This document shows positions 18,212 through 28,430 of a stretch of 28,717 nucleotides of DNA, one piece after another. The stretch is from NCBI GenBank assembly GCA_023132995.1, contig JAGLXI010000243.1, forward strand, positions 1 through 28,717, given 5' to 3'. The notes beneath the pieces were generated by a model. That model was not told the origin of the DNA. It searched no databases and saw only the letters and a list, made by a program, of their open reading frames with translations. How positions within the stretch are numbered: position 1 is the stretch's first letter; each line of letters opens with the position of its first letter. This DNA comes from Candidatus Zixiibacteriota bacterium (GTDB taxonomy: Bacteria; Zixibacteria; MSB-5A5; GN15; FEB-12). The position numbers and the translations under genes are program-made.

Positions 18212-18344
18212 AAGTTAAACCGGACGCAGAACAGGGGCAAGCGGTTTCTCGGGACAGGTCGCGCTGGGTCTCATGGCGAGCGGCCGCGATGCGACCAGAA
18301 GGCTCACCAAAACCGCTTGCACTGAGAACTTGACGGCCTATTTT
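18212..18344. promoter_or_regulatory. Divergent promoter pair with an 11-bp inverted repeat at both -35 regions
   Basis: Minus TTGCCC-N17-TAACTT (18240-18212). Plus TTGCAC-N16-TATTTT (18317-18344). GCAAGCGGTTT (18237-18247) is the reverse complement of AAACCGCTTGC (18310-18320). Confidence 0.5.
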
Positions 18345-18453
18345 GCCGTTGGGGAATTATTGCGGGAGTATCCTGTCCGCATCCCCGAGGAAGGCTGGCC
18401 GGGAAACCCGGTCACAAGATTTCAAGCCGCTGGCTCAGACACTGGGAGTACCA

Positions 18454-18792
18454 ATGAAGTTTACTGATTCGCTTGAGGGAGACATCGTCTGTTTTGAGAT
18501 GTCCGGCAAGATTATGGGTGGAGAGAACACGACTCTATTCTACGGCAAGGTTTGCGAATATGTCAACCTCAACAAGAAGAGCATCATACTCGACATGGCC
18601 AAGGTCGACTGGATCAACTCGATCGGCCTGGGCATGCTGATTACAGCCCTGACCACCACGCGAAACGCCGGTGGGCACCTGGTATTGTGCAACATTGACA
18701 AAATCGAGAATCTTCTCACGGTCACGCGCCTGATCACGGTCTTCGATCACTTCGATTCGCGGGAGCAGGCAACAGCTTCTTTTAGCAACTGA
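18454..18792 (+). CDS. STAS-domain anti-sigma factor antagonist (RsbV/SpoIIAA-like)
   Basis: Start at ATG 18454 (GGGAG RBS), 112 aa. 'IILDMAKVDWINSIGLGMLI' keeps the phospho-acceptor Ser. Also 'LLTVTRL..VF'. Confidence 0.9.
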   Translation: MKFTDSLEGDIVCFEMSGKIMGGENTTLFYGKVCEYVNLNKKSIILDMAKVDWINSIGLGMLITALTTTRNAGGHLVLCNIDKIENLLTVTRLITVFDHFDSREQATASFSN

Positions 18793-18876: not shown

Positions 18877-19170
18877 CCCAAAAGATTCCGTGGGCGTCTG
18901 CCGCCCCGGTTGTTCTATGTCAAGACATTGTTTACAGGTTGTATCCAGTCTCCGAGCAAAACCTGGATTCCGGGTCAAGCCCGGAATGACAATGGGTAGT
19001 TGCGTCGGGTGGCCGTTTCAAACTTGTTTGGAACGGGAATTCAGCCCGGGAAGAGACACCCCCAAGTTTGAGGATGCCACCCAGCAGGCATTGCCGGTTT
19101 TATCCGTGGGCGGCGACTCCCTCGGTCTGCCAATGACCGACGTCCACCCGGATGTGTTTGAGGGGATGGA
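18877..19170. repeat. Second mosaic cluster of REP-like / dRS3-like palindromes between convergent genes
   Basis: CCCAAAAGATTCCGTGGG (18877-18894); CTGGATTCCGGGTCAAGCCCGGAATGAC (18963-18990); GTGG-CCGTTTCAAAC-TT-GTTTGGAACGG (19009-19036) with a degenerate inverted partner (19057-19080); TCGGTC-N7-GACCGA (19122-19140). Confidence 0.75.
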
Positions 19171-19187: not shown

Positions 19188-20270
19188 TCAGTGAGTATCC
19201 GAAGCTGCGGCACCCGTAATGTTCAAACGGGGGGCAAGTTCGGGTATAGAACGTAATTTCTCAAGGATCTTCTCGCAGGCAGGGTCCACGTTATGTGGAT
19301 CAAGCGAAACACCCTGAATACGACTCATAAGACCATAAGGCTTTTCGTAGACTGCTTCCCCGGTCATTAAGGGGCATACTGTCTTGTCTGAACCCATAGC
19401 CCAGCCACATTCTTGGTTCGTCCATAGGGACTTCCAGAATTCCTTTGTCAACAGGAGAACAATCACATCACAGGCGATTAGTTCTTCTATTATCTGAGAC
19501 ATCCAGAACACCGATACATGAAGGTCGTCGTGCGCCATGAAAACCTGAATACGATCGTTTATCAGTCCATCCTTTACTTTACCGGCCAGGTCTTTGTCAT
19601 GAGTCGAGTAGCTCATAAAGATTTTGACCTTGGTTGACACGATATCGTTGCGACTCTTGAGGAGGTCTTCGATTTCTCGTTGCTTGGCCGGATCCGGGTT
19701 GATCTTGTACAATAGCACCTTATCGACAAATCGTGGGAACTCCTTCCACCCCCTTATGCTAACAAACAGACCACCCTCCGTAAGGTCCTTTAGCCAGTCA
19801 GTCAGATCTTTTTTGCTGTCATAGAAGTTGTCCTGCAGGTGCGGAAGCCCCACTCCCTGCTGAGGCCACTTACTATTAATCGCTCCTATGAATTGCAAAA
19901 TCTCCAGCTTAAGCTGCTGTGGCTCCAACACCCTTGACTGCACTTGCTCATCAAGGGCTTTTTGAGTCAGGAGAAACTCCGACTCTTCAGGGTTAAGCGC
20001 CTTGGAAACCAAGCCAAACCGTATCGCTGTGTCATGAGTGCGGGGACTGACAACTTCTTGAGCGTCAATTTCGGCCACGCGGCTTGACACCTTAACCACA
20101 AACTGCATTCCTTCCTCCGCCGTTGGAGAGGAAGAGTCTCTGAATGCATACCAGACTGGTATTTGGTTCAGAGGTTGAGATGTCGTATTCGGCCCAGCCT
20201 GGCCGACGTCCACCCTGAATCGATACGGTCGACCGTCTATTACCGATAGCACATCGCTGAAGTGATCCAC
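19188..20270 (-). CDS. TIR-domain protein (C-terminal TIR) with an unassigned N-terminal region of about 210 aa
   Basis: 'KIFMSYSTHDKDLA...VFMAHDDL...ACDVIVLLLTKEFWKSLWTNQECGWA' keeps the catalytic-position Glu. GTG start directly after the secA stop. Lower GC than secA. Confidence 0.85.
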   Translation of the reverse strand: MDHFSDVLSVIDGRPYRFRVDVGQAGPNTTSQPLNQIPVWYAFRDSSSPTAEEGMQFVVKVSSRVAEIDAQEVVSPRTHDTAIRFGLVSKALNPEESEFLLTQKALDEQVQSRVLEPQQLKLEILQFIGAINSKWPQQGVGLPHLQDNFYDSKKDLTDWLKDLTEGGLFVSIRGWKEFPRFVDKVLLYKINPDPAKQREIEDLLKSRNDIVSTKVKIFMSYSTHDKDLAGKVKDGLINDRIQVFMAHDDLHVSVFWMSQIIEELIACDVIVLLLTKEFWKSLWTNQECGWAMGSDKTVCPLMTGEAVYEKPYGLMSRIQGVSLDPHNVDPACEKILEKLRSIPELAPRLNITGAAASDTH

Positions 20271-23246
20271 CTACTCCCCCTTGCCGTGGCATTTTTTGAA
20301 TTTCTTGCCGGAGCCGCAGGGGCAGGGATCGTTGCGGCCGACCTTGGGCATCTGACGACGAAAAGTGCGGTCCTGCTTGCCGGCCTGGGAAGCCTCGGCC
20401 ATGGGGTTTTTCTCCTGTGGAGCACCGTCCACCGACGGTGGCGGGGCGGACAGGCCCATGCCGGTCGAGTCGGCGTGCGAGGTGACCATCTGTGGTTCGC
20501 GGCGGCGCTCGGAGCGTGACTTCTCAGGCACGTTCACCCGCAGCTTGTAGACGAGATTGACAATCTCCCGGTCGACCGTCTCAACCATGCCCTGGAATAT
20601 CTTGAACGCCTCGCGCTTGTAGATGTCTATCGGTTTGCCCATCCCGCCGTGGTAGGCCCGCAGGCCGATCCCCGCCCGAAGCTCCTCGACTTCGGCAAGG
20701 TGGTCGCGCCAGTGGCGGTCGATTGTCGACAGTACAGCGTAGCGCTCCAACTGGCGCATGACTTCCTCGCCGTAAGTGGCTTCCTTCTGCGTGTAGAAAG
20801 CCATGATCGCCCCCAGGATCTTCTCCTTGAGCGATTCGCGCGTCAGCTTCTCGATATCCTCCGGCTTGAACTGGAGGTTGAGCAAGTAGATATTGCGCAG
20901 TTCCTCGGTGAAGCCCTTCAGGTTCCACTCCTCGGGGTAAGTCTTCTCTGGGCAGTGGACGTCGATAAGACCCACGAGGACATCTTCGATCAGCTCCACT
21001 ACTTCGTCCTTGATCGATTCCCGTTCGAGGGCGGCCAGGCGGCGCTCGTAGATCCATTTGCGCTGGACGTTCATCACGTCGTCATAGTCGAGCGTGTGTT
21101 TGCGGATGGCGAAGTTCTGGGCCTCGACTTTTTTCTGTGCCCGTTCAATGGCCTTGGTCACCATGCCGTGAGCGATGACCTCGCCTTCCTCGACACCCAG
21201 CTTGTCCATGACCGTGCCCAGGCGGTCACCGCCGAACAGGCGCATGAGGTCATCCTCGAGCGAGAGGAAAAACAGCGAAGAGCCGGGGTCGCCCTGGCGG
21301 CCGGCCCGTCCGCGCAACTGGCGGTCGATACGCCGTGATTCGTGACGCCCCGTGCCGACGATGTGCAACCCGCCGCGTTCCACCACGCCCTTACCGAGCT
21401 TGATGTCCGTGCCGCGCCCGGCCATGTTGGTGGCGATCGTCACGGCACCGCTACCTCCGGCGTGGGCAATGACCTCCGCCTCTTTCTGGTGGTGCTTGGC
21501 GTTGAGGACGTTGTGCGGTATTCCGGCTCTCTTGAGCATGCGGGAAAGGGTCTCGGAGACGTCGACCGTGACAGTGCCCACGAGTGCCGGCTGGCCCTTT
21601 TCGTGCTTCTCTCTTATCTCCTCGATGATGGCATTGTATTTCTCATGGCGGGTACGGTAGATCCGGTCGTCCCGGTCATCGCGCACGACCTGTACATTGG
21701 TCGGAATGACCATGACGTCCAGCTTGTAGATGTCGAAAAACTCTTGCGCCTCGGTTTCGGCGGTTCCGGTCATGCCTGCGAGCTTGTCGTACATGCGGAA
21801 GTAGTTCTGAAGAGTCACCGTCGCGAGCGTCTGCGATTCCGCTTCGATGCGAACCCCCTCCTTGGCCTCGATAGCCTGGTGGAGGCCGTCGCTGTAGCGG
21901 CGACCGGCGAGGATACGGCCGGTGAACTCATCGACAATCATCACTTTGCCGTCCTGGACGACATATTCGGCGTCCTTCTCATACAGCGAATAGGCGCGCA
22001 GGAGCTGGCTTATGGCATGCACTTTCTCGGAGCGTTCGCCGTGGACGCGGTAAATCTCGTCCGTCTTCTGCTGACGCTCTTCGGCCGAGAGTGACTCGTC
22101 GCCGTCAAGCTCCGAGAGCATGGTGGAGATGTCCGGTATTTCGAACAGCTTCTGCTCCTCGGGGGACAGTTGCATCGTGCCCGTGTCGGTCAGGGCGATG
22201 GTGTGCTCCCGCTCGTCAATGAAGTAGTGGAGGTGGTCGTCGATCTCGTGCAGTTTCTTGTCGCGCATGAAAGCTGACTCGACGCTCGTCATCAGCTTTT
22301 TCATGCCCGGCTCTTTGAGAATTTTGAGCAGTCGTTTGGCCTTGGGAGCACCCCGGTTAACCGCCAGCAACTGGATGCCGGCCTCGAATTCGTCTTCGGC
22401 TTTCTCGCCGGCAAGCAGCTTTTCCGCGTTAGAGAGCATATCGTTGATAAGCACCGTCTGCTTGCGGACGATCTTCTCGACCGTCGGCTTCATCTGGCGG
22501 TAGCGGTCATGCCCCGACGATTCCACCATGCCGGAGATTATCAGGGGGGTTCGGGCCTCGTCGACAAGGATGGAGTCGACTTCGTCAATAATGGCATAGT
22601 GGAAATTGCGATGGGCGCGGTCTTCGGCCCGCTGGCACATGTTGTCTCGAAGGTAGTCGAACCCGAACTCATTGGCGGTGCCGAAAGTGACGTCGCACGA
22701 GTACATTTCGCGGCGCTCGGCGTTGGTCATCTGGTTCTGGATAACGCCCACGGTGAGGCCGAGATACTCGTAGATCTTGCCCATCCAGTCACAGTCGCGG
22801 CGGGCGAGGTAGTCATTGACCGTGACGATATGAACTCCCTTGCCTTCCAGGGCGTTGAGATAAACCGGCAACGTGGCCACGACCGTCTTGCCCTCGCCGG
22901 TGGCCATCTCAGCGATCTTTCCCTGGTGGAGCGCGATCCCGCCGATAAGCTGAACGTCAAAGTGGACCATGTTCCACTCGGTCTCGATTCCGGCCACGTC
23001 CCACGTTTGACCCAGATGACGGCGGCAGGCCTCTTTGACCACGGCGAACGCCTCCGCCATGATGTCATCGAGCGTCTCACCGTCCTCAAGACGCTTTCTG
23101 AAATCGTCAGTCCTGGCTTTGAATTCGTCTTCGCTCTGCTTCTGCAGTTCGTCGTAGAACTGGTTTATCTCATCCACCAGCGGCTGCATCTTTTTGGCGT
23201 CCCGCTCGTGCTTGGTGCCGAATATCTTTGTGATCAGGTTCTTCAT
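20271..23246 (-). CDS. secA: Preprotein translocase subunit SecA
   Basis: [51 protein letters not shown] and C-terminal Zn motif [14 protein letters not shown]. Confidence 0.99.
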
Positions 23247-27677: not shown

Positions 27678-28430
27678 ATGTTTGAAGAACTGGTTGACAT
27701 CATGGTCAACTGCCGCCGGTGCGCTGTGCTGACCGGGGCGGGCATATCAGCCGAGTCCGGGGTTCCCACCTTCCGCGGCAAAGAGGGACTGTGGGGAAAG
27801 TTCAGGCCGGAAGAGTTGGCCACAATGTCGGCCTTCATGTCCAATCCGAAAATCGTGTGGGAGTGGTACAACTGGCGGCGCGACCTGATGGCGAAAGTGC
27901 AGCCCAATCCGGGGCATTTCGCTCTCGGTGAGATGGAAAAGGCGTTTGAGCAGTTTACCCTGATCACCCAGAATGTCGACGGACTTCACCGCCAGGCCGG
28001 ATCTGAGAACATGCTGGAACTACACGGGAACATCCACCGAAACAAGTGCGCAGAGTGCAACGCTGCGGTGGACGGGCAGATAGAAATAGACCCCGACGAT
28101 ATCCCCTCCTGCGCGCAGTGCGGCGGCAGTATCCGCCCCGACGTGGTCTGGTTCGGCGAGATGCTTGACGCCGATATCATCGACGCCGCCTTTGATGCGG
28201 CTCAGCAGGCGGAGCTGTTCTTCTCGGTCGGCACGTCGGCGTTGGTGCAGCCGGCGGCTTCGCTTCCGGTGGTGGCCAAGAGAGCCGGTTCGACATTAGT
28301 TGAAGTCAACATGGAACGTACGCCCTTGAGTGATTTGGCAGATTTCCACTTCTGCGGCCCTTCCGGCGAGCTTCTTCCCCGGTTGATGGAGCTGTTCCGC
28401 AGGCGGAAGGACGGCGGCGATGGCGGCTGA
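27678..28430 (+). CDS. cobB: NAD-dependent protein deacylase (class III sirtuin)
   Basis: GAGISAESGVPTFRG, VWEWYNWRR, TQNVDGLH, LHG, CxxC...CxxC, RPDVVWFGE and GTS. Confidence 0.95.
   Translation: MFEELVDIMVNCRRCAVLTGAGISAESGVPTFRGKEGLWGKFRPEELATMSAFMSNPKIVWEWYNWRRDLMAKVQPNPGHFALGEMEKAFEQFTLITQNVDGLHRQAGSENMLELHGNIHRNKCAECNAAVDGQIEIDPDDIPSCAQCGGSIRPDVVWFGEMLDADIIDAAFDAAQQAELFFSVGTSALVQPAASLPVVAKRAGSTLVEVNMERTPLSDLADFHFCGPSGELLPRLMELFRRRKDGGDGG

Follow-up and report, generated by a model that had tools for sequence, protein, structure and literature searches.

The 28,717-nt contig JAGLXI010000243.1 of a Candidatus Zixiibacteriota bacterium (assembly GCA_023132995.1), whose whole length is referred to here as the window, carries on its minus strand a gene for a TIR-domain protein that starts at the first base after the stop codon of secA. 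This gene probably encodes a single-gene sensor-TIR NAD+ hydrolase (NADase), placed in a defence hotspot flanked by secA and expressed through secA. In the window lineage, each of the 12 full-length family members found follows secA directly (gaps between -4 and about +11 nt), and other defence-type genes were found in the same slot in related genomes. As judged from profile and structure searches, the TIR family is uncharacterised and falls outside any described system.

The secA junction and the start of the TIR gene

The minus-strand junction reads GGC AAG GGG GAG TAG GTG GAT CAC, with a gap of zero between the secA TAG and the GTG of the TIR gene and both genes in the same reading frame, as a sequence-only reading of this DNA had described. 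The upstream product scored far above the cut-offs of all SecA Pfam domains (SecA_DEAD, PP_bind, P-loop_SecA, SecA_SW and SEC-C). A misassembly at this point, which that reading had raised as a concern, is very unlikely because the same junction was found in independent assemblies from other samples.

The GTG that abuts the secA stop is the true start, and the 360-aa long form is the real gene. A HMMER search against 1.84 billion representatives gave 26 relatives below 1e-30, and about 30 full-length homologues (~350 aa, with N-termini 2-6 residues longer) aligned from residue 3-7 of the query to their own residue 5-11, which places the N-terminus of the family at, or slightly before, codon 1 of the window gene. 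An independent metagenome contig (L009, 81% amino acid identity) shows GAG TAG ATG at the homologous site, followed by an open frame of 348 codons, and a third relative (P0005 contig) has its ATG one codon later. Codons 2-54 of the window and L009 genes differ by 17 synonymous and 20 non-synonymous changes (ratio of non-synonymous to synonymous rates, dN/dS, 0.29), with no stop or frameshift, and distant relatives in genomes G032 and G040 match from residue 7 of the window protein. In the AlphaFold models the four N-terminal strands share one sheet, with predicted local distance difference test (pLDDT) values of 76-97.

Database gene calls begin at Met55 and give a 306-aa protein (P0003, and P0004 in a relative). 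It could accordingly be proposed that this shorter protein is the true product, made from its own Shine-Dalgarno (SD) sequence, and that the 162 nt after the secA stop are untranslated and open by chance. A GGAGG motif is located 5 nt before the Met55 ATG and pairs with the anti-SD at -9.5 kcal/mol, about equally to the SD-like run at the junction (-10.5 kcal/mol; the anti-SD was taken as canonical, the 16S 3' end of the organism not being in the assembly), and motif and ATG are both kept in L009 (-11.8 kcal/mol). This proposal is nevertheless quite unlikely: the 53 codons in question are alignable and constrained as described above, with Met55 as the start, three of the four strands of the sheet, which is modelled with confidence, would be lost, and Met55 is absent from most homologues. 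Judged by these alignments, the database calls are truncations, and the public gene models of this family in the lineage lack 54 residues, owing to a true start right at the secA stop and a decoy SD-ATG pair downstream of it. A minor short isoform from Met55, made beside the long form, has a somewhat better but still small chance of existing. The synonymous rate between window and L009 was found about threefold higher in codons 2-54 (0.65; window 20109-20267, L009 1037-1195) than in the rest of the gene (0.19), with small counts, and recombination with a breakpoint close to the secA junction may account for this step.

The SD-like run of the true start coincides with the last sense codons of secA, and a G-rich run of similar strength (-8 kcal/mol or lower) was found in 7 of 10 scored junctions, encoded by terminal secA codons for K/R-G-E, R-G, A-E-G and similar residues. 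The sequence-only reading had placed the only SD of the TIR gene there; the location holds for the true start, but the run is not the sole SD, given the GGAGG before Met55. The SEC-C motif and about 35 preceding residues of SecA are almost invariant across genera, and the 2-4 residues after CHG, from which the SD-like codons come, are variable, with a tendency towards G-rich ends (KGE, RG, REG, AEG) before a tightly coupled gene.

Zero-gap in-frame stop/start junctions are ordinary in the window genome, being present in 16 of 1648 long open reading frames (ORFs), 10 of them as TAG followed by ATG or GTG. TAG is the stop in 11 of these 16 junctions (followed by ATG in 7, GTG in 3 and TTG in 1) and makes up 28% of all long-ORF stops, and this organism may favour TAG-ATG as a coupling junction. 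With this usage of TAG, and no suppressor tRNA among the 25 tRNAs detected in the genome, a genome-wide recoding is unlikely, as had also been anticipated from the sequence. The composition of the TIR gene looks foreign, in line with the lower GC content first noticed in sampled lines: 49.4% (55% at third codon positions, GC3), compared with 59.5% in secA (GC3 80%) and 56.4% in the genome, which places the gene within the lowest 2.3% of equal-sized genome windows.

Domains and divergence of the TIR family

The full-length AlphaFold model of the TIR protein has a mean pLDDT of 88.8, and the N-terminal 212 residues reached 92.2 with a predicted template modelling score of 0.88; the first strand (residues 2-11) has a pLDDT of about 92. 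The protein is built from a beta-sheet subdomain, a winged helix of the PadR/MarR/ArsR type, a long linker helix and a C-terminal TIR domain. No solved structure matched the beta-sheet subdomain when the whole N-domain model was searched with Foldseek/VIA, which returned the winged helix only (Z 9-10, root-mean-square deviation of 2.2-3.1 A over 77-92 residues); weak MarR and PadR profile hits were also obtained. Pfam TIR_2 (PF13676) covers residues 217-325 with 47.2 bits against a cut-off of 28, the family profile matches Cat1, TLR1/2/6, SARM1 and AbTIR, and Foldseek matches the TIR fold to SARM1, SpbK (9phb), SPARTA, MyD88 and AbTir. A single-sequence PDB search with the TIR protein gave nothing useful, and a feature search of the ESM Atlas gave only sub-threshold leads.

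The conserved glutamate, which the sequence-only reading had connected with NAD+ hydrolase or signal synthase activity of bacterial TIR domains, is Glu287, in the motif S-x-W-T-x-Q-E (here S-L-W-T-N-Q-E). This residue is invariant in 32 family members and is aligned by profile with the glutamate of the W-x-x-x-E motif in Cat1 and TLR1. It occupies the position of the catalytic glutamate in SARM1 and AbTir, and is the predicted catalytic residue.

The N-terminal module (beta-sheet plus winged helix) is also present on other effectors, namely nucleoside 2-deoxyribosyltransferase-like (NDT-like) or TIR-like domains and uncharacterised AFDB proteins, a distribution that corresponds, as far as domain architecture can tell, to the modular sensor-effector pattern of conflict systems. 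The proteins of G032 (L004 985-2100) and G040 (L005 1477-2586) combine this module with an NDT-like (TIR-like) C-terminus in place of TIR_2, and their genes are not beside secA. The analysis thus defines an uncharacterised family of putative sensor-TIR proteins with a beta-sheet subdomain, a winged helix and TIR_2, whose candidate sensor module is shared with NDT-like effectors.

Divergence within the family is extreme. The secA-linked TIR proteins show identities of 26-37% and the last 230 residues of the corresponding SecA proteins of 63-82%, and the two values do not correlate (rho = 0.15); one pair shows 81% identity for TIR and 82% for SecA, and a pair from the same genus shows 29% and 77%. 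These steps in divergence suggest that old alleles have been exchanged at a fixed location, and speak less for a clock-like descent. Of the 107 genomes of the taxonomic family, 9 are matched by the family profile at E<=1e-20, five of them with a full-length gene or a broken remnant. Among the secA-linked copies, those of G139 and the P0005 contig are broken, one being split into 193 and 142 aa and the other carrying an internal TAA, which suggests gene decay in some lineages. The family tree does not resolve at depth and does not separate vertical descent from allele exchange, and a constraint uniting all secA-linked members was not rejected (approximately unbiased, AU, test, p = 0.865), making one ancient capture in the bacterial family possible. 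For the horizontal acquisition proposed from the sequence, the foreign-looking composition is borne out, but a single recent event is not supported.

Linkage to secA and the slot behind it

Family members were collected by a family-profile search of the phylum of the window and by tracing metagenomic members to their contigs. The members share the proximity to secA but no common frame: in six of the 12 junctions the TIR gene is in frame with secA, or in four of ten after collapsing close kin. Inspection of secA 3' ends in relatives, a check advised by the sequence-only reading, thus yielded at least 12 diverged TIR alleles behind secA together with other defence genes in the slot. In other taxonomic families, the five members found lie away from secA, as do the relatives that retain the N-terminal module or the TIR domain alone. 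The genes downstream are different in each genome examined, and none is conserved in any relative; in the window, an imperfect inverted repeat is located in the non-coding DNA that separates the TIR stop from a convergent STAS-domain gene, and this STAS flank is not conserved in relatives. The persistence of a gene family at no more than about 11 nt from the secA stop, despite such deep allele divergence, appears to be undescribed, and a literature search on secA with TIR and defence found nothing relevant. The metagenome-assembled genome G118 has two secA 3' ends (C171/L083 and C245/L100) with the same CHGMNG tail, one followed by the TIR gene and the other by an unrelated 109-aa ORF with a 4-nt overlap, which looks like two slot alleles in one population, or contamination (5%).

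The 3' flank of secA was read in about 60 genomes of the family, with 2.5-9 kb inspected. Defence-type cargo was located directly after secA in 13 of the approximately 60 genomes with a readable flank, within about 250 nt and mostly within 11 nt. The cargo other than the TIR family, located at L036, L039, L042, L044, L118, L127, L130 and L135, includes restriction enzymes, an NTPase and other TIR-like proteins (Table 1). In G030, which belongs to another taxonomic family, the type IIG gene is inserted between secA and genes for a low-molecular-weight phosphatase and an M16 peptidase, which follow secA in five other genomes. No integrase or mobile-element gene was seen beside the slot in the stretches read. 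From this gene content, the secA 3' end qualifies as a defence hotspot flanked by a core gene. An essential gene can thus provide, at its 3' end, a putative defence slot free of mobile elements in the stretches read, and the locus offers a case of how uncultured sediment bacteria may exchange defence alleles at a fixed position of the chromosome. The ORFs next to secA in the window lineage may also be a cheap source of further defence genes.

Table 1. Features of the window, junctions between secA and the TIR gene in the window lineage, and other cargo of the slot behind secA. Gaps are given in nt from the secA stop.
Feature	Positions or genome	Strand	Gap	Details
secA	20271-23246	minus		991 aa; C-terminus ...CHGKGE; TAG at 20271-20273
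TIR gene	19188-20270	minus		360 codons; beta/winged-helix/TIR protein; stop TGA 19188-19190
GTG start codon of TIR gene	20268-20270	minus		First base after secA TAG
SD-like purine run AAGGGGGAG	20274-20282	minus		Last three secA sense codons; 3-11 nt upstream of TIR start
Internal GGAGG and ATG (Met55)	20106-20118	minus		GGAGG 20114-20118; ATG 20106-20108; start in database gene calls
N-terminal beta-sheet subdomain, aa 1-113	19932-20270	minus		Strands 2-11, 14-24, 39-45, 56-61; helix 76-92
Winged-helix subdomain, aa 115-192	19695-19928	minus		PadR/MarR/ArsR type; structure search
Long linker helix, aa 194-211	19638-19691	minus		AlphaFold models
TIR domain, aa 215-345	19236-19628	minus		Pfam, profile, Foldseek
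GAA codon of Glu287	19410-19412	minus		Predicted catalytic glutamate
Imperfect inverted repeat	19007-19082			20-nt arms, 80% complementary, 36-nt loop
STAS-domain gene	18343-18792	plus		Convergent; far edge of slot in window genome
secA-TIR junction	G000 (window)		0	TAG GTG
secA-TIR junction	L009		0	TAG ATG
secA-TIR junction	P0005 contig		3	
secA-TIR junction	G005		-1	taGTG; same genus as window
secA-TIR junction	G133		8	TAG ggggggct ATG
secA-TIR junction	G118		3	TAA tgg ATG
secA-TIR junction	G097		-4 or 2	ATGA overlap or later ATG
secA-TIR junction	G139		-4 or about 11	Broken copy; ambiguous start
secA-TIR junction	P0007 contig		6	TAG ggggta ATG
secA-TIR junction	P0018 contig		2	TGA gt ATG
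secA-TIR junction	P0021 contig		3	TAG ggg GTG
secA-TIR junction	P0011 contig		1	TAG g TTG; 35.9 kb, RsgA-secA-TIR
Mrr	G010		9	
Type II methylase and restriction endonuclease	G001		about 250	
PDC-M05 nucleotidyltransferase pair	G003		about 190	
nSTAND3 NTPase	G086		161	
PCTIR / PDC-S35 protein	G095		8	
NDT/TIR-like proteins	G121, G114		3	~370 aa
Type IIG enzyme	G030		3	1089 aa; other taxonomic family

Expression, alternative explanations and known systems

A promoter scan of the minus strand between 18566 and 22537 revealed no sigma-70-like site, although the E. coli-type consensus used may not fit this uncultured lineage. With neither a spacer nor such a site, the TIR gene is most simply transcribed together with secA. 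Termination-reinitiation works at gaps from -4 to about 10 nt and is nearly abolished by about 20 nt (PMC10666635, PMC6728339), and all 12 junction gaps fall in this range. Translation would be carried out by ribosomes that end at the secA stop and then reinitiate, or that bind the SD-like run in the last secA codons, and the outcome would be a low, constitutive expression proportional to that of secA. The use of the secA transcript, as first proposed from the sequence, is thus backed by the lack of a recognisable promoter or spacer, and co-transcription and coupling remain predictions. Defence cargo that lacks its own promoter, with a dosage probably set by an essential gene, appears to be undescribed, and would provide a case for how potentially lethal NADases, as this protein is predicted to be, might be held at a low constitutive level.

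The TIR protein would act alone. Its N-terminal beta/winged-helix module would sense an infection cue, either a phage protein or a nucleic acid, and sensing would drive the clustering of TIR domains and the cleavage of NAD+, resulting in an abortive-infection-type defence functionally like that of SpbK, in which a sensor part is joined to a TIR NADase activated by clustering (PMC12847820). NADase activity, trigger and phage defence are predictions drawn from the domain content and from this analogy.

Several observations weigh against the proposed sensor-TIR defence gene expressed through secA. The strong internal SD and ATG at Met55, conserved in L009, could yield an independent shorter product. 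TIR domains can also make signalling nucleotides, a function that requires a partner, and no such partner was found beside the TIR gene. Non-defence genes (sulfatase, outer membrane protein-like, PNPOx) are also placed tightly behind secA in some relatives, which indicates that tight packing at secA is not specific to defence genes. In addition, the far flank is not conserved, unlike in classical two-flank hotspots.

The continuity of frame across the junction had led the sequence-only reading to propose that readthrough of the TAG would give a functional SecA-TIR fusion of about 1350 aa, tying an NADase to the translocon. The frame is indeed shared, with no intervening stop, in the window, L009, the P0005 contig, G118, P0021 and P0007, but the remaining six junctions are out of frame (gaps of -1, 8, 2 or -4, 2, 1, and -4 or 11), and the four of ten left in frame after collapsing close kin compare with one in three by chance. 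The abundance of TAG stops and the lack of a suppressor tRNA also argue against readthrough, and a query with TAG read as Q found no natural fusion, since no protein of 743-2366 aa resembled the TIR part, in a search whose sensitivity was limited by the word prefilter. The best 150 of 3211 relatives are all of 518 aa or less. The fusion is not supported by these comparisons and is scarcely credible. Alternatively, the linkage could be functional, with the TIR protein guarding SecA or the Sec pathway by binding or monitoring it, or assembling with SecA co-translationally. Synthesis from the same mRNA right after each SecA chain would place the TIR protein by SecA, and interference of a phage or toxin with SecA would release or cluster the NADase. 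If true, this would explain why a hypervariable gene is kept within about 11 nt of secA despite the complete turnover of both the gene sequence and the genome downstream. In its favour, all 12 lineage members are secA-linked despite an identity of about 30% and fully rearranged downstream flanks, and an excess of very short gaps is described for genes that encode the subunits of complexes (PMC10666635). Against it, family members in five genomes of other taxonomic families sit in unrelated contexts, TIR alleles vary greatly and SecA is conserved, and the same slot takes unrelated cargo (Mrr, restriction-modification, nSTAND3, PCTIR), as would be expected of a landing site more than of a partnership. 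A guard or co-assembly role is consequently considered highly unlikely.

Finally, the gene could have no immune function and encode a lineage-specific housekeeping or regulatory TIR/winged-helix protein, such as a DNA-binding regulator or an enzyme of NAD metabolism, inherited vertically with secA. A single origin of the secA linkage, which the AU test did not reject, and the resemblance of the winged helix to those of transcription factors are consistent with this explanation. However, it is difficult to reconcile with the patchy occurrence of the family, the two pseudogenised copies, the divergence between alleles of one genus, the foreign-like composition of the gene, the shuffling of the N-terminal module onto other effector domains and the defence-type nature of the other cargo, and it is regarded as unlikely.

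The proposed sensor-TIR defence gene was compared with known systems. The closest functional parallel is SpbK of the Bacillus subtilis integrative and conjugative element ICEBs1 (PMC12847820, PMC8880864), also a single polypeptide with a non-TIR part and a TIR NADase domain (predicted in the window protein) and no partner gene. The window TIR model matches the SpbK filament structure 9phb, and the same logic would be expected, from a phage cue through TIR clustering to NADase activity. However, there is no relation in sequence or fold outside the TIR domain, the window protein having instead the beta-sheet subdomain and the winged helix, and SpbK is carried by a mobile element whereas the window gene is chromosomal, behind secA.

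Membership of Thoeris or CBASS, the defences invoked by the sequence-only reading, is not borne out. Thoeris ThsB proteins (types I-III) share the conserved glutamate and give weak matches in the TIR region (PADLOC E = 1.5e-7), but NCBIfam ThcB4 scores only 39.3 bits (cut-off 220), the PADLOC hits to ThsB are confined to a part of the TIR region, and ThsB proteins are without the N-terminal module of the window protein. No ThsA-type effector, which would carry SIR2 or Macro/TM with a SLOG domain, is adjacent, as secA and the convergent STAS gene are the neighbours. A single SIR2 gene is present in the window (27678-28430, plus strand), 7.4 kb away, and was considered as a ThsA partner and rejected as a housekeeping CobB-type NAD-dependent deacylase (296.6 bits against a cut-off of 243). 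Regarding CBASS and Pycsar, no cyclase or CD-NTase was found among the neighbours, and the N-terminal module is neither SAVED nor STING. In G095, the PDC-S35 protein (CAP12-PCTIR in PADLOC) is similar in size and in its sensor plus TIR layout and occupies the same slot, but it has PF10137 instead of PF13676, its N-terminal region differs, and the window protein misses the PDC-S35 models.

The junction resembles those of translationally coupled gene pairs (PMC6728339, PMC10666635), which are co-directional, with -4 or -1 overlaps or gaps of up to about 10 nt and an SD-like element inside the upstream gene. Such pairs usually encode subunits of one complex, whereas here a hypervariable immune-type gene follows the essential secA. 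The slot itself resembles the core defence hotspots of Pseudomonas aeruginosa (cDHS1/2, PMC10250203) and E. coli (PMC10121019), in which a conserved core gene borders variable cargo enriched in defence genes. It differs from them in having a single conserved flank (secA), no mobile-element genes in the stretches read and usually a single-gene cargo, which abuts the stop of an essential gene within about 11 nt and is dominated by one gene family.

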